NCBI GenBank assembly: GCA_041640815.1
Contig: JBEPZO010000003.1
Location: 21-64,020, forward strand
Origin: Thiobacillaceae bacterium
GTDB lineage: Bacteria; Pseudomonadota; Gammaproteobacteria; Burkholderiales; Thiobacillaceae
DNA length: 64,000 nucleotides
Direction of reading: 5' to 3'
Shown: in pieces, positions 21,245 through 30,205 of the stretch
Layout of the letters: the number at the start of each line of letters is the position of its first letter
How positions within the stretch are numbered: position 1 is the stretch's first letter
The notes under the pieces: generated by a model
Databases searched by the model: none
Seen by the model: only the letters and a program-made list of their open reading frames with translations
What the model was told of the DNA's origin: nothing
Position numbers and translations under genes: made by a program

Positions 21245-22621
21245 ATGCTCACCCTTTACAACTCCCTTAGCCGTAAAAAAGAGGTCTTTACCCCCATCAC
21301 GCCCGGGCAGGTACGCATGTACGTCTGCGGCATGACCGTCTACGACTACTGCCACCTGGGACATGCGCGCGTGTTGGTGGTGTTCGACATGGTCGTCCGC
21401 TGGCTGAGGGCCTCGGGCTACACGGTCACCTATGTGCGCAACATCACCGACATCGATGACAAGATCATCAAACGCGCGCAGGAAAACGGTGAGCCCTACA
21501 CCGCCCTCACCGAGCGTTACATTCGCGCCATGCACGAGGACGAACAGGCCCTCAATGTGCTGCCGCCGGATCGCGAGCCGCGCGCGACCGAATACATCGG
21601 CAAGATGCTGGACATGATCCAGCGCTTAATCGACCGCGGCCACGCCTATATCGCTGAAAATGGCGACGTCTATTACGCCGTGCGCAGCTATCCGCCCTAC
21701 GGCCAACTGTCCGGTAAGTCGCTCGACGACCTCATTGCCGGTGAGCGGGTCGAGGTGGACCCGCACAAGCGCGACCCGCTCGACTTCGTGCTCTGGAAGG
21801 CGGCCAAACCCGGCGAGCCGTCCTGGCCGTCGCCCTGGGGACCGGGGCGGCCCGGCTGGCACATCGAGTGCTCGGCCATGGGCACCGATCTGCTCGGCCC
21901 GCACTTCGACATCCACGGCGGCGGCCAGGACCTGCAATTCCCCCACCACGAAAACGAGATCGCCCAGTCGGAAGGGGCCTACGGTTGCAAATTCGTCAAC
22001 TACTGGCTGCACAACGGCTTCGTGCGCGTGGACAACGAAAAGATGTCCAAGAGCCTGGGCAATTTCTTCACCATCCGCGAGGTGATCGCCCGCTATCACC
22101 CAGAAGTCGTGCGCTTTTTCATCCTGCGCGCCCACTACCGTAGTCCGCTCAATTATTCCGACCAGCACTTGGCGGATGCTAAGAGTGCCCTGTCGCGGCT
22201 ATACCTAGCGCTGCGTGGCTTGGAGGCCGAGGTCGCGCCGATCGACTGGCAATCACCCTATGCCGCACGCTTCAAAGCGGCCATGGACGACGACTTCAAC
22301 ACGCCCGAGGCCCTGGCCGTGCTCTTTGAACTTGCCAATGAGCTCAACAAACACCGCAGCGCCGAGCTCGCCGGGCAGCTCAAGGCATTGGGCGGCGTGC
22401 TCGGTCTGCTGCAACGCCCCCCTGAAGAGTTCTTACGGGCAGCGAGCGCTAAAAGCGGCTCGGATTACTCCGAGGTGCGCATCGAGGCGCTGATCCGCGA
22501 GCGTCTCGAGGCGCGCCGCGCCAAGGACTACAAGCGAGCGGATGCCATCCGTGACGAGCTGAAGGCAGCCGGCATCGTGCTCGAAGACACGCCCTCCGGC
22601 ACGACCTGGCGGCGCGCCTAA
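21245..22621 (+). CDS. cysS: Cysteine--tRNA ligase
   Basis: [18 protein letters not shown] (HIGH), [17 protein letters not shown] motifs. 458 aa. Confidence 0.95.
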
Positions 22622-22634
22622 GAAAACGCTAAAA

Positions 22635-22669
22635 AAGCCGCAAGCGGGATGGAGGACCCGCAGCGGCTT
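22635..22669 (+). terminator. Compound stem-loop downstream of cysS (atypical terminator; no downstream T-run)
   Basis: AAGCCGC..GCGGG-(8)-CCCGC..GCGGCTT nested hairpin, preceded by A6. Confidence 0.3.
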
Positions 22670-22739
22670 GCCGCGAGACACTAGCGTTTCCCTTAGACTT
22701 TGAGACTAACAAGGTCATCAGTTGGTGCGCACATAAGTC

Positions 22740-23417
22740 ATGCGTTATCGCATCCTGCCTGTCACCCCCTTCGCGCAGAACTGCACCCTCCTGTGGTGCG
22801 AGGCGACCGGCCGCGCCGCGCTCATCGATCCAGGCGGCGAGGCAGAACGACTCCTGGCTGCGGTCGCCAGCGAGGGGGTGACCCTGGAGCGGCTGCTGCT
22901 CACGCATGGCCACTTGGACCACGTGGGCGCTGCGTTGGAATTGTCGCGGCGGCTTAACCTGCCGATCGAGGGGCCGCATGCCGCCGACGCCTTCTGGCTG
23001 GAGCAGCTGCCGCAGCAGGCGGCCTTGTTCGGTTTCCCGCCCGCAGAGCCCTTCGAGCCTCACCGCTGGCTTGCGGATGGCGATACGGTGCGCATTGGCA
23101 ATTTGTGCCTTGACGTGATCCATTGCCCGGGCCACACGCCCGGCCACGTCGTCTTTTACCACCCGGCCAGCCGCCTCGCCTTCGTCGGCGACGTGCTCTT
23201 TAAGGGCAGCATCGGTCGCACGGATTTCCCCTTTAGCGACACTCAAACACTGCTTCGGTCCATTCACGATAAGCTTCTCTCTTTGGGAGATGACATCAGC
23301 TTCGTACCCGGGCACGGTCCACAGTCATGCTTCGGCGATGAGCGTCGACATAATCCCTACCTGCAGAAATCGTTGCCTGCTCAGCATCTAGCCTCTAGTA
23401 CGGGTGCAAACGCTTGA
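22740..23417 (+). CDS. MBL-fold metallo-hydrolase (glyoxalase II/YcbL-like)
   Basis: THGHLDHVG metal motif, CPGHTPGH and later His/Asp ligands. 225 aa. Confidence 0.8.
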   Translation: MRYRILPVTPFAQNCTLLWCEATGRAALIDPGGEAERLLAAVASEGVTLERLLLTHGHLDHVGAALELSRRLNLPIEGPHAADAFWLEQLPQQAALFGFPPAEPFEPHRWLADGDTVRIGNLCLDVIHCPGHTPGHVVFYHPASRLAFVGDVLFKGSIGRTDFPFSDTQTLLRSIHDKLLSLGDDISFVPGHGPQSCFGDERRHNPYLQKSLPAQHLASSTGANA

Positions 23418-23510
23418 AAGCTGCCTAGGCGCGCGGTTTCCCTGTAGGTTGGTCTGCTACAGTATCTCCCCCACGCAGGCGCCACCTAGTTTACGATTGC
23501 GATCAGGACT

Positions 23511-23567
23511 ATAAGAACATAAGAATATTAATAGATTACTAGATTTTCTTTGCTGGTAGCAGTAGCA
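23511..23567. promoter_or_regulatory. AT-rich upstream region with three adjacent pairs of short direct repeats
   Basis: ATAAGAAcATAAGAA (23511-23525), TAGATTacTAGATT (23532-23545), GTAGCAGTAGCA (23556-23567), directly upstream of the tetraheme cytochrome gene. Confidence 0.3.
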
Positions 23568-23585
23568 TAAATAGGATTGTTATCG

Positions 23586-24743
23586 ATGACTGCACCCAAA
23601 ATGATTAAGACTGCCTCTGTTTTGTTGTTCGCGCTGCTTCTTGTTGCCTGCAGCAAGGAGCAACAGGCTACGCATGCAACGCAAACGCCCGCTATCAACG
23701 CTGACATCACTCAAGGTCGTAATCTCGCACAAGCCAAGTGCAGTAACTGTCATGGGCTTGATGGGCGTGGGCGAGAGCCACGCATCCCACACTTGGCGGG
23801 GCAAAAGCTAGGCTATCTCAAGCTGGCCATGCGCGAATATCGCACTGGTGATAGATCGCACATTGCGTTAAAGCAGCTTTTCTCTGAGCTTTCCGAAACC
23901 GAACTCGATAGCGTGGCCGCCTACTATGCCAGCCTCCCGCCAATCGCCCCGGCTAAGATTAACAGCAAAACGGCCGCAGCTACGGATGCTCTCCAAGCTG
24001 GCCGGGCCGCCGCTGCTGCCTGCGGCGTGTGCCATGGTGAGGACGGTAACTCTAAGCTAGCTGGCACGCCTAGCTTGGCCGGTCAACATCGCGACTACCT
24101 CCTCGCTGCGATGCAGGCCTACATAGACGGTACGCGTAAGCACACCGTAATGTACACACAGCTGACCGCTCTGGATACGGCGACGCTGCAAAATCTGGCC
24201 CAATACTATGCCGCGCAGCCGGCCAAGGCTGTGCAGCGTGTAATCACCGGTGATGTGAAAGCGGGTGAACGTCTAAGCGCCGCCTGCGGTGGCTGCCATG
24301 GACTGCAAGGTCAGACCGTAGATGCGCATACCCCAGCCTTGGCTGGACAAGACCCGGAATACCTCATCGCCAGCATGCAAGCCTACCGTGATGGCAGTCG
24401 TATCCATGCCGAGATGAAGGAATTACTCCAAGCCATGAACACCACTGAACTCGGACACATCGCAGCCTACTATGCTGCTCAAACACCGCGCCAAGGACAT
24501 GCCATCGCCAGCCTCTCCGCCAGCGAGTGGGTCAAGCGCTGCGATCGCTGCCATACACCGGCTGCTGACAATCCCCTCGTCCCCCGCATCGCGGGCCAGC
24601 AGCACGATTATTTGGCCCATGTATTGCGCGATTACCGTGAGAGTAAGCGCAAACAGTCGGTCATGCATGCCATGGTGGCGCCGTTAAGCGACGCAGATAT
24701 TGAGGGTATCGCTGCCTACTATTCGAGCCTTGGCCCGCGCTAG
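23586..24743 (+). CDS. Lipoprotein tetraheme c-type cytochrome (four tandem class-I / c4-half-like modules)
   Basis: Lipobox LLLVACS. Four CxxCH motifs (CSNCH, CGVCH, CGGCH, CDRCH), each followed by ..LAGQ...YL...M..Y..G.R......L......AAYYA. AGGA lies 9 nt before the ATG at 23586. Confidence 0.8.
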   Translation: MTAPKMIKTASVLLFALLLVACSKEQQATHATQTPAINADITQGRNLAQAKCSNCHGLDGRGREPRIPHLAGQKLGYLKLAMREYRTGDRSHIALKQLFSELSETELDSVAAYYASLPPIAPAKINSKTAAATDALQAGRAAAAACGVCHGEDGNSKLAGTPSLAGQHRDYLLAAMQAYIDGTRKHTVMYTQLTALDTATLQNLAQYYAAQPAKAVQRVITGDVKAGERLSAACGGCHGLQGQTVDAHTPALAGQDPEYLIASMQAYRDGSRIHAEMKELLQAMNTTELGHIAAYYAAQTPRQGHAIASLSASEWVKRCDRCHTPAADNPLVPRIAGQQHDYLAHVLRDYRESKRKQSVMHAMVAPLSDADIEGIAAYYSSLGPR

Positions 24744-24934
24744 AAGACTCTGACATGGATCGCCAAGCGCATTAGCTGTGAATGCCGTTATGCTACCGCG
24801 CTCGAGCGCATGCGTCTGACCGCACCCCAAAAAACCAGTAGGTACCAATGCTCTATTGACACCCCTCTACCCCTCTCCAATGGCCGGGGAAGAAACTCTG
24901 CTCATTTCCGCCGAGGTATTGGTGATCGACGGCC

Positions 24935-25588
24935 TTATGTATCGCCGAGCAATAGCTTCACCTCGCGCAGCAGCGCTGCCACCTCTAGACTGGCAATGGC
25001 TGCACGGTGGCCTAAGGCGTTAATCGTGCAACCAAGTGCGGCAGCCTGGCGGTAGGCGGTGCGGCTTTTGAGCTGGGCGGCAAGCATCGGGATGCCGAAC
25101 TCGGCCAGCATGCCCAGTACCTCTTGCGCCAGCAGGGTGTTGAGCTGTGCCTGGTTGACGACGAGGCGTGCCTGAAGTGTGGGATTTTTGTGCCGGGCGC
25201 GGGCGATGGCCTCGCGGATGCGCAGGCTGGCCCACAAGTCGAGTGGCGAAGGGATGACTGGCACCAAGGCGAGATCGGCCAAGCGCAGGGCGCTATCGGT
25301 GACCGGAGCGCTGGCGTGCGGCGGGCTGTCGATGACGATGTAGTCGTAATCGGCGAGGCGCTTGCGTAGTTGTTTGTGCAGCTTGCCCGCCTCGTCTGAA
25401 AAATCCTCGACCGTGGCGGGGAAGCCCCTGCCCGCCCGCGCCCAGTGCAAGGCGGTGTTCTGCGGGTCGGCATCGGCAACGAGGACCTTGGCGCCCGCGT
25501 CGGCCAGGGCACCGGCCAGCAACATCGCCAGGGTGGACTTGCCCGCGCCACCTTTCTGGTTGACGACGGCGATGACGCGGGCGGTCAT
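24935..25588 (-). CDS. Small ParA/MinD-family P-loop ATPase (deviant Walker A)
   Basis: MTARVIAVVNQKGGAGKSTLA..VLVADADPQ..YDYIVIDSPP..LVVNQ. About 217 aa with no N-terminal HTH extension. Its ATG overlaps the stop of the upstream gene (ATGA). Confidence 0.85.
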   Translation of the reverse strand: MTARVIAVVNQKGGAGKSTLAMLLAGALADAGAKVLVADADPQNTALHWARAGRGFPATVEDFSDEAGKLHKQLRKRLADYDYIVIDSPPHASAPVTDSALRLADLALVPVIPSPLDLWASLRIREAIARARHKNPTLQARLVVNQAQLNTLLAQEVLGMLAEFGIPMLAAQLKSRTAYRQAAALGCTINALGHRAAIASLEVAALLREVKLLLGDT

Positions 25589-27039
25589 GGGATGGCTTCG
25601 CCGTGCCAGCCGAGCGGTGAGAGTCCTCTGGCCATGGCCCCGTCGCGCAGGTGGTGCAGGAACTCCGAGGGACCGGCAGCGTAGAGGTCGGCATGGCTCA
25701 AATCGCTGTGTGCGGCGAGGATGCGTTCGGCGGCATGGCGGGCACCGCCTTCGGCCCTGAGGGCGGTGTAGCTGAAATTGTCCAGCGCGTCGGCCCAGGA
25801 GCGGCATAGATTGTCCTGATAGTGAGGAAGAGTATCTGCCACCCAGTACAGCTGCATGCGCTCGGCCATCTCCAGCGACATGGCGTGTTGCACGAGGCTC
25901 TTGATGGGGGCGAAACCCTCGTCCCAGGCCGCGAAGATCACCGACCGGCGAGAATCCATGTTGATGACGAAGCTGCCATGCGGCCCTTCGATGATGACAG
26001 GGGCCTCCTTGCGCAGCTCCTCGAACACCTTGCGCGCGAAGGGGCGGTTGTCGCGGCGCACATGCAGCTCGATGTGCCGGTCCTCGCAGGGGCAGCTGGC
26101 GATGTAATAGTCGCCGCTCACACCATCGGCGGTGAGGCGGATACGCTGGCCGGCCAGGAAACGCAGGCGCTGGCTGCGCGGGGTGGTCAAGTGCAAGGCG
26201 GCGACAGCCTCGTCGAACAGCTCGATGGCCTTGACCTTGGTGGGGATGCGTTGCAGGGGGATGTCGCTGGCGCCGGCGACGCTGGCCTCGATGACGATAT
26301 CCGTCACCGCCGTGTAAGCGCACATCAGAAAAACGTTGTTCGCCTTTTCCGACGCTTTGAGCGCGAAGTCGTGCGGATGCACCTTCTTGATCTCGCCGGC
26401 GAGCAAGCGCGCCCGGCACTCGCCGCAGTTGCCGTTGCTACAGCCGTAGTTGAGCGGGATGCCGGCGCGCAAGGCCGCATCCAGGATGGTGTCGGCCCCC
26501 TCGACGAAGAACTCGTGACCCGAGGGTTGAACCTTGACTTGCGCTGAGACGATGCGCATTGCGCTCTCCTTCTCTAGCAGGAGCCGTTGCCGCTCCGCCT
26601 GCTCGGGCGCGGCCTGGAGCTGGCCGCGCAACCACTGTTTGAGTGCGCTCACCGCCTGGGCCGTGTCCGTGCCGCCGGTATCGACCAGATCGTCGAGCTT
26701 GCGCAGCGTCCAGTCGAAGAGTTGTTCATAGTGCGTCAGCAAGGACTTGGCGGCGGCATATTCGCTGGACAGGTCGAACAGCCGGTCCGCCAGCACCTCG
26801 CGGTCTGGCAGCGCCCGCTCGAAGATGCGCTTGGCGAAGGCCTTGCGCTTGATCTCTTCGACGCGCTGATATTCGCCGTCGTCCTCCCATTTGACATCGG
26901 GGAAGACGCGCAGCAGCTCATCCATCTCCACCTCGCCATCGTAGGTCTTGAGCTCGCCGGTCTTGATCATGTGCTGCAAGGTCGCACGCGGGATGCCGAC
27001 CAGGCGGGCGACGCGGGATAAGGAGAAGGTGTGCGCCAT
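25585..27039 (-). CDS. Fusion protein: N-terminal HTH (MerR/excisionase-like), coiled coil, plant-type [2Fe-2S] ferredoxin, FNR-like (FAD/NAD-binding-fold) module with degenerate cofactor motifs
   Basis: SLSRVARLVGIPRATLQHMIKTGEL (HTH); aa ~60-160 charged and helical; C200-x4-C-x2-C..x31..C240 (YGCSNGNCGECRARL..FLMCAY); FNR-like beta-barrel plus Rossmann region, but GDYYIAS in place of RxYSxxS and AAWDEGFAP in place of GGTGxAP. Confidence 0.7.
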   Translation of the reverse strand: MAHTFSLSRVARLVGIPRATLQHMIKTGELKTYDGEVEMDELLRVFPDVKWEDDGEYQRVEEIKRKAFAKRIFERALPDREVLADRLFDLSSEYAAAKSLLTHYEQLFDWTLRKLDDLVDTGGTDTAQAVSALKQWLRGQLQAAPEQAERQRLLLEKESAMRIVSAQVKVQPSGHEFFVEGADTILDAALRAGIPLNYGCSNGNCGECRARLLAGEIKKVHPHDFALKASEKANNVFLMCAYTAVTDIVIEASVAGASDIPLQRIPTKVKAIELFDEAVAALHLTTPRSQRLRFLAGQRIRLTADGVSGDYYIASCPCEDRHIELHVRRDNRPFARKVFEELRKEAPVIIEGPHGSFVINMDSRRSVIFAAWDEGFAPIKSLVQHAMSLEMAERMQLYWVADTLPHYQDNLCRSWADALDNFSYTALRAEGGARHAAERILAAHSDLSHADLYAAGPSEFLHHLRDGAMARGLSPLGWHGEAIP

Positions 27040-27100
27040 ACCTCGATGATAGTACGTCAGGCCAGGCTAAGGGGATTCCCCAAGTGCGGCGGATACGCTT

Positions 27101-27150
27101 TAATCCCCTCCCATCCCCCATCACCCTGCCCTCCATGTCCCATCCCCCAT
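27101..27150 (-). repeat. G-run cluster (potential G-quadruplex) in the divergent promoter region; contains a 12-nt direct repeat
   Basis: The minus strand reads ATGGGGGATGGGACATGGAGGGCAGGGTGATGGGGGATGGGAGGGGATTA, with seven G3+ runs and loops of 1-7 nt. On the plus strand CCCATCCCCCAT occurs at 27110-27121 and 27139-27150. Confidence 0.5.
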
Positions 27151-28864
27151 GCTGAATCTCGTCACCCGCCCTTGCCCGGCTCACGTGTTCGAGCAGCTGC
27201 GCCGCGGCGGCCTGCCGCCCTTGCTGGCGCGGCTATACGCCAGCCGGGGGGTGAAACGCCAGGAGGACTTGAAGAGTCGGTTGACGGAATTGCTCCCCTA
27301 CACCGGCTTACTCAATTGCGAGGCAGCTGGCGCGCGGCTGGCCGATGCCATCCAGCGTGCGCAGCGTCTCTTGGTGGTGGCGGACTACGACGCCGATGGC
27401 GCCACCGCCTGCGCCGTGGCCGTGCAGGGACTTACGGCCATGGGGGCAGAGGTGGATTACCTGGTGCCCAACCGCTTCGAGTACGGTTACGGGCTCACCC
27501 CCGAGATCGTCGCGCTCGCCGCCGAGCGACGGCCGGACGTCATCATCACTGTCGACAACGGCATTGCCTCTCACACCGGTGTGGAGTCAGCCCGCCAGCT
27601 GGGCATCGAGGTGCTCGTCACCGATCACCACCTGCCGGCACAAGGCGGTGAACTGCCGCAGGCACTCATCGTCAACCCCAACCAGCCCGGCTGCCCCTTC
27701 CCCAGCAAAAGCCTGGCTGGGGTGGGGGTGATGTTCTACGTGTTGGTTGCGGTGCGGGCCGAACTGCGCCGGCGCGGCTGGTTCATGGGGGGACGCGCCG
27801 AGCCCAATCTCGCCGAACTGCTCGACCTGGTGGCTCTGGGCACGGTAGCCGACGTGGTGCCGCTGGATGCCAACAACCGTCTGCTGGTGCAGCATGGCCT
27901 CAAGCGCATGCGCGCCGGCCAGGCTCGGCCGGGCATCGAGGCCTTGTTCCGGGCAGCGGGGCGCGAGTCGGCGCGCGCCAGCGTCTACGACCTCGGTTTC
28001 GTCCTGGGGCCCAGGCTGAATGCGGCAGGGCGGCTGGCCGACATGAGTGTGGGTATCAATTGTCTGCTGGCGCGTGATCTTTCCGAGGCGATGCCGCTGG
28101 CGCGCGAACTCGACCGCTTGAATCGGGAGCGCCGCCAGATCGAGGCCGACATGCAGGAGCAGGCCCTGGCACTGCTGGAGACGAAGGACGTGGACGACGG
28201 CTGGAGCCTGACCCTGTACGATCCCAGCTGGCATCAAGGCGTTGTGGGCCTGCTGGCCGCGCGCCTGAAAGAGCGCCATCACCGCCCAACCATTGTATTC
28301 GCTGATGGCGGCGACGGGCTGCTCAAAGGGTCGGGCCGGTCCATCCCGGCGCTGCACCTGCGCGATGCCCTCGACCGGGTGGACAAGCGGCACGCCGGCC
28401 TCATGCTCAAATTCGGCGGGCACGCCGGCGCTGCGGGTCTGATCCTGCGCCAGGAGGACCTGCCCGTGTTCGCCGCCGCCTTCGAAGCCGTCGCACGCGA
28501 GCTGCTCACCCCCGCGGATCTGAAGCGGGTGATCGAGACCGACGGCCCGCTGCGCCCCGAGGAATGCCAGCTCGATCAGGCCCTGTTGCTGCGCGACGCG
28601 GTCTGGGGTCAGGGCTTTCCGCCGCCGCTCTTCCACGGCGAGTTCCGCGTCGATAGCCAACGCCTGGTCGCGGACAAGCACCTGCGCTTGCGGCTCTCAG
28701 GTGGGGGGCTCAGCGCCGAGGCCATGCTGTTCAACCATGACGCCCCCCTGCCGCAAGGCATCCAAGCGACCTACCGGCTGGAGGTGAACGAGTGGAACGG
28801 CAAGATGAGCCCGCAATTGACCCTTGAACAGTGGTGCCCGCTAGACGAAGATGGCCGGCCGTGA
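27149..28864 (+). CDS. recJ: Single-stranded-DNA-specific exonuclease RecJ
   Basis: DHH-family motifs (VVADYDADGATA, VTDHH, GGHAGAAG). 571 aa. Confidence 0.95.
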   Translation: MLNLVTRPCPAHVFEQLRRGGLPPLLARLYASRGVKRQEDLKSRLTELLPYTGLLNCEAAGARLADAIQRAQRLLVVADYDADGATACAVAVQGLTAMGAEVDYLVPNRFEYGYGLTPEIVALAAERRPDVIITVDNGIASHTGVESARQLGIEVLVTDHHLPAQGGELPQALIVNPNQPGCPFPSKSLAGVGVMFYVLVAVRAELRRRGWFMGGRAEPNLAELLDLVALGTVADVVPLDANNRLLVQHGLKRMRAGQARPGIEALFRAAGRESARASVYDLGFVLGPRLNAAGRLADMSVGINCLLARDLSEAMPLARELDRLNRERRQIEADMQEQALALLETKDVDDGWSLTLYDPSWHQGVVGLLAARLKERHHRPTIVFADGGDGLLKGSGRSIPALHLRDALDRVDKRHAGLMLKFGGHAGAAGLILRQEDLPVFAAAFEAVARELLTPADLKRVIETDGPLRPEECQLDQALLLRDAVWGQGFPPPLFHGEFRVDSQRLVADKHLRLRLSGGGLSAEAMLFNHDAPLPQGIQATYRLEVNEWNGKMSPQLTLEQWCPLDEDGRP

Positions 28865-28930
28865 AGCTCGCGATCTAGCCCCGCCACCTCGCCCGGCGTC
28901 GGCCTGCCGCCACGGCGACACCCAAGACCA

Positions 28931-30205
28931 TTGCCCATGACCGGGGTGACGCATATGCAAGCGTGGCTTAGCGCGGAATTGGAACCCCTGGCGCTGTTTC
29001 TCACCAGCATGGGGCTGGGGCTGTTGATCGGTCTGGAGCGCGAACGCTCGCCGGCAGCCAAGGCGGGGTTACGCACCTTCACCCTGGTGGCCTTGGCCGG
29101 CACGCTGGGCGCCATGCTCGCGGAACAGACCGGCGCGCCCTGGATCCTGGGCGCCGGGCTGATCATCCTGGGCGGCATGATGGTGGCGGCCTATTTCCGG
29201 GTGCCGCAGGAGGCAGACCCGGGCACCACCACGGTCGCCGCCATCGTCGTCTGCTATGGCTTAGGCGCCTTGGTCTGGTACCGGCATACCCAACTGGCCG
29301 TCGCCCTGGCGGTCACCACCACGGTGCTGCTCTATTTCAAGGCCGAGCTGCGCGGCGTCACCCAGCACCTCACCCGGCAGGACCTGGTGTCCTTCCTGCA
29401 GTTCGCCGTGCTCTCCCTGGTCATCCTGCCCGTATTGCCGGATCAAGGCTATGGCCCCTACGCGGCGCTGAATCCCTATCAGATCTGGTGGATGGTGGTG
29501 CTGATCTCGGGCCTGTCGCTCGCTGGCTATGCCGCCCTGCGCCTGGCAGGCGAGCGACAGGGGGCGCTGCTCACCGGCCTGTTCGGCGGTGTGGCCTCCA
29601 GCACCGCCACCACCCTCACCTTTGCCCGACACGCGCGCCGCCGGCCAGAGCTCATGAGCGTGGCCGCCTTGGTGATCCTCACCGCCAACTGGGTCGTGCT
29701 GGTGCGCTTGAGCCTCCTGGTTGGGCTGGTCGCACCCGCCTTGCTGCCTCAGGCCGTGCGCATGCTCGGGCTCGCCGCCCTCGTCGGTGTGCCGCTACTC
29801 TATTGGCGCTGGCGACACTTGCAGCGTCAGGAACTGCCCGAACTGACCTTGAGCAACCCGACCGAGATCCGCGCCGCCCTGGGCTTTGGCGCCCTCTATG
29901 CCGGCGTGCTGTTCGCCGCCGCATGGCTGTCGGACTGGGCCGGTAGCCGTGGCGTCTATGCCGTGGCGCTCGCCTCGGGCCTGACCGACGTCGATGCCAT
30001 CACCCTGTCCAGCCTGCGCCTGTTCGGCCTCACCACCTTGAGCGGTGAGGAGGCCTTGACCAGCATCCTGCTCGCCTTGCTGGCCAACATCGCCTTCAAG
30101 GCGGGGCTGACCGTGGTCATCGGCGGCGGCCGGCTGGCGCTGCGCACCTTGCCGGGATTCACCGCCGTGGCCTTGGGCGCATGCGTCGGTTGGTGGTCGC
30201 TGTGA
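28931..30205 (+). CDS. MgtC/SapB-family N-terminal domain fused to a DUF4010-type polytopic membrane domain
   Basis: About 12 predicted TM segments. N-terminus LGLLIGLERE..AGLRTF.LVALAG is typical of MgtC. The long hydrophobic C-terminal half resembles DUF4010 proteins. Confidence 0.7.
   Translation: MPMTGVTHMQAWLSAELEPLALFLTSMGLGLLIGLERERSPAAKAGLRTFTLVALAGTLGAMLAEQTGAPWILGAGLIILGGMMVAAYFRVPQEADPGTTTVAAIVVCYGLGALVWYRHTQLAVALAVTTTVLLYFKAELRGVTQHLTRQDLVSFLQFAVLSLVILPVLPDQGYGPYAALNPYQIWWMVVLISGLSLAGYAALRLAGERQGALLTGLFGGVASSTATTLTFARHARRRPELMSVAALVILTANWVVLVRLSLLVGLVAPALLPQAVRMLGLAALVGVPLLYWRWRHLQRQELPELTLSNPTEIRAALGFGALYAGVLFAAAWLSDWAGSRGVYAVALASGLTDVDAITLSSLRLFGLTTLSGEEALTSILLALLANIAFKAGLTVVIGGGRLALRTLPGFTAVALGACVGWWSL

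Follow-up and report, generated by a model that had tools for sequence, protein, structure and literature searches.

A widespread unnamed protein family with a helix-turn-helix, a ferredoxin domain and a reductase fold lacking cofactor motifs, found beside an orphan ParA gene in a Thiobacillaceae bacterium

In a 64,000-nucleotide stretch of contig JBEPZO010000003.1 from a Thiobacillaceae bacterium (assembly GCA_041640815.1; the whole stretch is referred to here as the window), the gene for a 484-residue fusion protein runs directly into the gene for a 217-residue ParA-type ATPase. The fusion protein carries an N-terminal helix-turn-helix (HTH), a helical linker, a plant-type [2Fe-2S] ferredoxin domain and an FNR-like reductase fold, and the arrangement raises the question of whether it is the missing partner of the ATPase, as the original prediction proposed. 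On our best reading, two genes that are each conserved without the other are co-transcribed here, in one Thiobacillaceae lineage, and their adjacency reflects shared transcription rather than demonstrated partnership. The fusion protein is more likely to be a stand-alone redox-sensing regulator than the partner of ParA. What makes the locus interesting is the protein family more than the operon: it would be either a variant of one-component sensing based on iron-sulfur (Fe-S) clusters or a reductase fold put to another use.

Each gene has hundreds of full-length homologues, so both are real genes and not chance open reading frames (ORFs); the nearest homologues of both products come from uncultured Thiobacillaceae (Betaproteobacteria). 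If the HTH fusion were the cognate DNA-binding adaptor of the orphan ParA, giving Fe-S-gated positioning or a regulator localized by ParA, the two genes should be conserved together, and the original prediction had named a lack of co-conservation as one outcome that would refute it. We surveyed the closest 80 species-level loci (all at least 51% identical), which come from Thiobacillaceae, Hydrogenophilaceae, and Gallionellaceae, and sampled distant members singly. Counts refer to gene adjacency at loci, and the absence of parA was scored where at least 800 nt of downstream sequence was available. parA lies 3' of the fusion gene at 8 loci and is absent from 68, with 4 loci too short to judge, so that the adjacency holds in just 8 of 76 informative loci. 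Elsewhere, ParA orthologues at 73 to 80% identity stand in the order divergent fabI, parA, His_Phos_1, with no fusion gene within 5 kb, while other loci show the order recJ, fusion gene, parA, His_Phos_1. The pair is not co-conserved across these loci, and the ParA-partner reading is therefore not supported.

The history of the adjacency points the same way. In a neighbor-joining tree of the fusion proteins, ParA-linked loci form a basal grade of one clade, with one ParA-less clade nested within it, and the whole Thiobacillus/Gallionella clade is ParA-less. This topology fits one gain and one loss of the adjacency; parA would have come to follow the fusion gene in a single event, at the root of one clade. 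Fusion proteins without a linked ParA show equal or lower per-site entropy, with no relaxed constraint in any 20-residue window, and differ from the ParA-linked ones at only four diagnostic positions, all conservative substitutions. Distant family members likewise have no orthologous ParA nearby. One distant gammaproteobacterial locus (L181) does have a ParA-like gene 1.1 kb away, which we rejected as an orthologue: it is a 31%-identical paralogue beside genes for MCP, cheW, and cheB.

Partners of ParA/MinD ATPases are reported to engage the ATPase via a disordered, positively charged N terminus (PMC10241942), whereas residues 4 to 45 of the fusion protein are modeled by AlphaFold2 (AF2) as a folded HTH with no free N-terminal tail. 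The flexible basic segment at residues 51 to 80 is internal and is conserved in ParA-less genomes as well. In favor of an adaptor are the HTH, the conserved basic segment at residues 60 to 75, the overlap of the two genes in the window, and the position of parA directly downstream (2 to 90 nt) in about 13 distinct loci with fusion identities of 63 to 88%. Weighed together, these observations leave the adaptor model improbable.

The overlap itself is real: the ATGA shared by the fusion stop and the parA start, which the original prediction pointed out, is present in the sequence. Related loci instead show gaps between the two genes, of 2 to 90 nt and once of 531 nt, so the true overlap is specific to the window. 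An adjacency kept over so wide a span (fusion identity down to 63%), with short gaps and an overlap in the window, does count against complete independence of the two genes, and some functional coupling in this lineage is possible. A narrower proposal is that in this Thiobacillaceae lineage the fusion protein is a DNA-bound adaptor or cargo of the ParF-like ATPase, its ParA-driven positioning or sequestration gated by redox or iron status, and that the wider family uses the same ParA encoded elsewhere; we consider this very improbable.

The ATPase is conserved in its own right. The predicted deviant Walker A motif is intact (KGGAGKST at 25532-25555) and is accompanied by DADPQ and YIVIDSPP in a small protein without an N-terminal HTH, which exceeds the cut-off of NCBIfam NF041546, "ParA family partition ATPase" (195.5 bits against 180). 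Its closest relative in the PDB is ParF of TP228 (4dzz, E 4e-22). Plasmid type Ib ParAs such as that of the ParF/ParG system of TP228 resemble it in size (about 215 residues here) and in the deviant Walker A motif, at 35 to 50% identity. They differ in their setting: in plasmid relatives at 40 to 50% identity, a gene for ParB or another partner comes immediately after parA, while the chromosomal orthologue group, found in related Betaproteobacteria at 73 to 89% identity, lacks one. Indeed, the predicted absence of a ParB-like gene or small partner ORF downstream of parA was borne out both in the window, where the 190 nt before the convergent cytochrome gene hold no plausible ORF, and in nine related loci. 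The genes that do follow parA vary (His_Phos_1, Glu/Leu-dehydrogenase-like, epimerase, entericidin-like, or none in the window). That parA never adjoins another obvious partner gene speaks for the adaptor model. By sequence, the protein is an intact ParF-like ATPase of a strongly conserved chromosomal orphan group.

Among these neighbors, a His_Phos_1 gene (about 203 residues) lies directly 3' of the ParA orthologues in most of loci L086 to L101, with a gap of 0 to 30 nt or an overlap (for example, L086 5001-6268 and L091 5001-6269). This pairing holds with or without an upstream fusion gene and is more constant than that of fusion gene and parA, although the 64-kb window itself has no His_Phos_1 gene. 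We also considered alpha-McdA, whose gene is found within or close to the cso operon and is followed by one for an McdB that ends in V(I)WPD (PMC8359340). This was ruled out because neither cso genes nor an McdB-like ORF are present: the neighbors are glnS, cysS, a metallo-beta-lactamase (MBL) fold hydrolase, cytochrome c, recJ, and an mgtC-like gene, and no small ORF ends in WPD.

If ParA does not explain the fusion protein, what is it? The four-module architecture described in the original prediction is supported by Pfam matches and by the AF2 model. Pfam Fer2 matches residues 169 to 242 (E 8e-12), and FAD_binding_6 matches residues 268 to 357 at 21.5 bits, barely over its cut-off; NAD_binding_1 (13.7 bits) and HTH_17 (residues 9 to 33, 16 bits) fall under theirs. 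The predicted cluster cysteines are all present, in the pattern C200-x4-C205-x2-C208-x31-C240, and are invariant in the 78 full-length and 60 short relatives aligned. An AF2 model built on a diverse alignment has a mean predicted local distance difference test (pLDDT) score of 89 and a predicted template modeling (pTM) score of 0.73, with pLDDT above 90 across residues 260 to 484. It supersedes an earlier model from a shallow alignment (64 to 100% identity), in which the ferredoxin domain was poor and the mean pLDDT was 69. Foldseek matches the model to CarAd, GcoB, T4moF, and BenC at E values of 1e-23 to 4e-25, and to Fre with a target-normalized TM score of 0.81; as modeled, the protein retains the fold of the FNR reductase family.

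Residues 1 to 50 are the best-conserved stretch of the N-terminal half, with the consensus LSLSRAARLVGVSRGxLQKKIxxGELxTFEG and near-invariant residues R9, A11, L13, G15, R18, Q22, and G35 across the family. In the model this module forms a strand-helix-turn-helix-hairpin-helix (strand 4-6, helices 7-14 and 18-27, strand 36-38, helix 39-45; pLDDT 76 to 92). Of 30 family members, 24 give a match to HTH_17 and 19 to the Fis-type HTH_8, none of which reaches its Pfam cut-off. Judged by its conservation, the HTH is under strong purifying selection. A low-confidence charged segment (residues 51 to 80) leads from it into predicted helices at 80-121, 124-142, and 148-164, with conserved positions at A67, P78, L83, and R86. 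A PDB sequence search with the N-terminal profile gave just weak matches to coiled coils or helical bundles.

The original prediction had also suspected that the reductase half was degenerate, since GDYYIAS and AAWDEGFAP appeared where cofactor motifs were expected. We aligned the 78 full-length and 60 short sequences and aligned the family profile to BenC, T4moF, GcoB, and CarAd. The two segments do align where RxYS and GGxGxxP lie in these four reductases, and the suspicion is strengthened: RxYS, GxxS, GGxGxxP, and CGP are missing across 138 representatives (Table 1). At the first position of RxYS, Arg occurs in 8 of 78 full-length sequences and in 12 of 60 short forms, where it is the most frequent residue; Ser at the last position is a minority in both groups (14 of 78 and 13 of 60). 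A-G-P replaces CGP in 63 of 78 full-length sequences. Motif loss is a conserved trait of the whole family and not decay in one gene.

Table 1. Ligand and cofactor motifs in canonical reductases, in the family, and in the fusion protein
Motif	Canonical	Family	This protein
[2Fe-2S] ligands	four Cys	four Cys, invariant	C200, C205, C208, C240
Flavin motif	RxYS	A/G-E/D-L/Y-P	G-D-Y-Y
FAD phosphate motif	GxxS	absent	absent
NAD(P)H loop	GGxGxxP	A-[YWF]-[DGE]-x-G-F-A-P	A-W-D-E-G-F-A-P
Nicotinamide-side motif	CGP	AGP	AGP

What replaces the flavin motif is itself conserved. The residues directly after the RxYS position read I-A-S-C-P-C-D/E, in which C316 and C318 are invariant in all 138 sequences and P317 is present in 137. 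This Cys-Pro-Cys (CPC) tripeptide aligns to QPG of BenC and NPV of T4moF, right behind their RxYSxx. Other family-specific blocks are GFAPIKSL and NLCRAWxDALDNF, and C412 is found in 70 of 78 full-length sequences.

These alignments contradict the public annotation, which would make the protein a conventional ferredoxin reductase of the oxygenase or AscD type whose N-terminal extension is there by chance. Its top NCBIfam and PDB matches are indeed BenC, T4moF, GcoB, and CarAd, and source databases include names such as "CDP-4-dehydro-6-deoxyglucose reductase." Yet it scores far under every equivalog cut-off, with 91 bits against 430 for BenC, 73 against 338 for PRK05713, and 69 against 500 for MmoC; overall it falls three- to fivefold below the reductase cut-offs, and four other members are likewise under them. 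The N-terminal module is kept, with invariant HTH residues, in 77 clusters, and no oxygenase or deoxysugar genes lie nearby in the window or in the related loci inspected. With the cofactor motifs missing family-wide, this explanation is excluded at the sequence level and has next to no chance of being right; the deoxysugar reductase annotation is almost certainly wrong.

A reductase that still works in an unusual way is a different matter. The fusion protein could be an electron transfer enzyme, tethered to DNA by its HTH, that binds flavin or another cofactor in a non-canonical way or acts as a ferredoxin:disulfide-type reductase through its [2Fe-2S] cluster and CPC dithiol, perhaps in DNA repair with RecJ. 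The FNR-like fold is intact and well conserved, in the blocks named above and in GP.G.F, but all four cofactor motifs are absent, and bulky or acidic residues (W-D, for example) occupy the place of the GG in the pyridine-nucleotide loop. No conserved operon partner resembling a substrate protein was seen at the loci surveyed. We consider such an enzyme unlikely, and return to it below where the short forms and recJ bear on it.

The family is far larger than the surveyed loci. A full scan of 1.84 billion cluster representatives (clusters at 50% identity) returned 376 proteins at E ≤ 1e-30. Among the best 150 of these 376 matches, 77 clusters are full-length (450 to 520 residues, aligned from residue 1 to about residue 480, with identities as low as 33%) and 60 are short forms of about 330 residues, which start at the position of M161 and are 40 to 47% identical to the C-terminal two thirds of the fusion protein. 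A pattern scan over one genome per GTDB species yielded at least 585 confirmed stretches, and named members include Thiobacillus, Sulfuricella, Parasulfuritortus, Sedimenticola, Thiohalophilus, and Thioalkalivibrio. Source names are generic throughout (for example, "2Fe-2S iron-sulfur cluster-binding protein"), no NCBIfam model reaches its cut-off for the fusion protein or four other family members, and no characterized homologue was found in the literature. The statement that this architecture is not a characterized system therefore holds: it belongs to a large, unnamed family in sulfur- and iron-oxidizing Beta- and Gammaproteobacteria.

The short forms lack the HTH and occur as single genes, so the ferredoxin and CPC-bearing FNR-like module evidently works by itself; this would suit an active enzyme. 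One short form, in Thioalkalivibrio thiocyanodenitrificans (L174 544-6020), lies 66 nt 3' of a resistance-nodulation-division (RND) efflux pair, a membrane fusion protein and ACR_tran, on the same strand.

We give about even odds to the reading of the fusion protein as a one-component DNA-binding protein that senses redox state through Fe-S and thiol chemistry. The sequences and models establish its domain composition, the loss of motifs, the invariance of CPC, the conservation of the HTH, and the gene neighborhoods; its signal, cofactor content, DNA binding, and target genes are what we infer from them. In such a scheme, the redox state (or Fe-S, iron, or nitric oxide status) would change the [2Fe-2S] cluster and perhaps also a dithiol/disulfide or metal site at CPC; the helical, probably dimerizing linker would relay this state to the HTH; and binding to DNA would be altered in response, with the compact divergent control region of recJ and the fusion gene itself as a possible target. 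The full-length form would thus couple the ferredoxin and FNR-like (CPC) function to DNA. In distant genomes the fusion gene stands singly among unrelated neighbors, which is usual for one-component regulators.

Several observations weigh against a sensor. The HTH reaches Pfam models only at sub-cut-off scores; motif loss is compatible with non-canonical flavin binding; and DNA binding, cluster content, and flavin absence are predictions. The HTH-less short forms suggest that the fusion may be an enzyme or electron carrier instead. Further, a comparison of 64 recJ-fusion intergenic regions revealed no operator conserved across clades.

In the control region, a -10-like TACTAT at 27049-27054 lies 9 nt before the fusion ATG. 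Nearly all loci have such a hexamer (TATTAT or TACCAT elsewhere), its end 7 to 10 nt from the ATG, and this closeness suggests a leaderless or near-leaderless fusion mRNA; a GAGG stands just 2 nt from the ATG in the window, and a promoter scan of the region found no canonical sigma-70 site. The window's control region contains the palindrome GGGGAATCCCC at 27071-27081, and loci of the Thiobacillus clade (for example, L040 and L055) contain the intergenic palindromes GATTCAGAATC...GAATTGCCGATTC. These clade-specific palindromes are candidate operators. At one locus (L006) the recJ-fusion spacer is 345 nt long and includes an insertion of about 240 nt with inverted repeats (TAAAAACCGCAGTTGA ... 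TCAACTGCGGTTTTTA) between the -10-like box and the ATG, which looks like a miniature inverted-repeat transposable element.

recJ is the divergent neighbor of the fusion gene within 4 kb in 63 of 76 betaproteobacterial loci and is immediately adjacent in 59, an association that counts for the active-enzyme alternative. It does not extend to the three gammaproteobacterial loci examined, which have unrelated neighbors and neither recJ nor an orthologous ParA; the linkage may therefore reflect a gene arrangement passed down within a single order. Two unrelated lineages also encode a small Rieske_2-type protein close to a family member, with 52% identity between the lineages: its gene lies immediately 5' of a full-length member (L181 4573-4884, plus strand) and 1.7 kb from a short-form member (L177 to L179 2984-3319, minus strand). 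It could be a redox partner or a coincidence, and it counts in favor of an active enzyme.

Two further observations concern the surroundings of the fusion gene in other genomes. At L176 (6511-6801) and L181 (6523-6807), both distant gammaproteobacterial loci, the fusion gene is followed at once, in convergent orientation, by a conserved minus-strand ORF of about 95 residues. The two copies are 69% identical and have no Pfam match, and none of the betaproteobacterial loci contains this ORF. At L032, L040, L047, and about 20 other Thiobacillus loci, contigs of metagenome-assembled genomes end alike about 4 kb 3' of the fusion gene. The three loci checked carry a tRNA at the contig end, and L040 also the start of a 16S rRNA gene, so these breaks mark an rRNA operon.

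Within the window (Table 2), the gene order is glnS, cysS, the MBL-fold hydrolase, a tetraheme cytochrome c, parA, the fusion gene, divergent recJ, an MgtC/DUF4010 membrane protein, and an Endo_dU nuclease. The setting is ordinary chromosome: PADLOC defense-system and PHROGs phage scans gave nothing meaningful, and Rfam found no RNA element in 22000-30000. The original prediction had placed the locus outside housekeeping synteny. This was wrong for the fusion gene, which lies in a conserved recJ and mgtC-DUF4010 neighborhood; only the cytochrome gene is lineage-specific. That gene (23577-24743, plus strand; four CxxCH motifs, Pfam Cytochrom_C) has a GC content of 0.50 at its 5' end against about 0.65 in its surroundings and no same-position counterpart in any of 82 related loci, and it seems to have been inserted between parA and the MBL hydrolase gene in this lineage only.

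Table 2. Features of the locus, in window coordinates
Feature	Position	Strand	Evidence
Orphan type Ib (ParF-like) ParA ATPase, 217 residues, counted from internal ATG	24935..25588	-	NF041546, ParF match, orthologues
ATGA stop/start overlap of fusion gene and parA	25585..25588	-	sequence
Fusion protein gene, 484 residues (HTH, helical linker, [2Fe-2S] ferredoxin, FNR-like fold)	25585..27039	-	ORF, Pfam/NCBIfam matches, full-length homologues, AF2
FNR-like two-domain fold, residues 262-484, without cofactor motifs	25588..26256	-	Foldseek, profile alignment, family counts
Cys316-Pro317-Cys318 motif	26086..26094	-	invariance and profile alignment
Plant-type [2Fe-2S] ferredoxin domain, residues 165-255; cluster Cys codons within 26320-26442	26275..26547	-	Pfam Fer2, Cys invariance
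Helical linker, residues 54-164	26548..26880	-	AF2 secondary structure
N-terminal HTH/winged-helix-like module, residues 1-50	26890..27039	-	HTH_17/HTH_8 matches, conservation, AF2
Divergent recJ/fusion-gene control region	27040..27148	.	sequence, 64 intergenic regions compared
recJ, conserved divergent neighbor	27149..28864	+	Pfam DHH, DHHA1, RecJ_OB

Should the redox-sensing reading be true, this uncharacterized, widespread family would represent a new architecture for Fe-S-based redox sensing and a clear example of how an enzyme fold can become a sensor: a complete ferredoxin-reductase scaffold that lost its flavin and pyridine-nucleotide sites, gained an invariant Cys-Pro-Cys and, in most members, was joined to an HTH.

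Three groups of known proteins help to place it. The class IB and three-component oxygenase reductases are its best sequence and fold matches, and BenC (1KRH), T4moF (4WQM), GcoB (5OGX), CarAd (7C3A), and AscD/E3 share its domain order, an N-terminal plant-type [2Fe-2S] ferredoxin followed by the FNR-like FAD and NAD two-domain fold. The fusion protein differs from them in lacking RxYS, GxxS, GGxGxxP, and CGP, in its CPC motif, and in an extra 165-residue HTH/helical module. CPC tripeptides occur in Mia40, and the related CPx motif in P1B ATPases, as redox-active disulfides, Fe-S ligands, or metal ligands. The likeness is to the invariant Cys-Pro-Cys itself; the folds are unrelated, and the CPC of the fusion family lies in the beta-barrel of the FNR-like domain.

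The proposed mechanism is of the kind seen in Fe-S transcription factors. In SoxR and other regulators of the SoxR/MerR, IscR/NsrR/RsrR (Rrf2), and FNR/CRP types, as in the fusion protein, a helical element connects an HTH DNA-binding module to an Fe-S cluster with Cys ligands, which could serve as a readout of redox state. MerR/SoxR-type regulators have a C-terminal CX2CXCX5C cluster motif. The fusion protein matches Pfam MerR at an E value of only 0.11, and its cluster, unlike a short C-terminal Cys motif, sits in a complete plant-type ferredoxin domain (C-x4-C-x2-C-x31-C) that is followed by a whole vestigial reductase fold.

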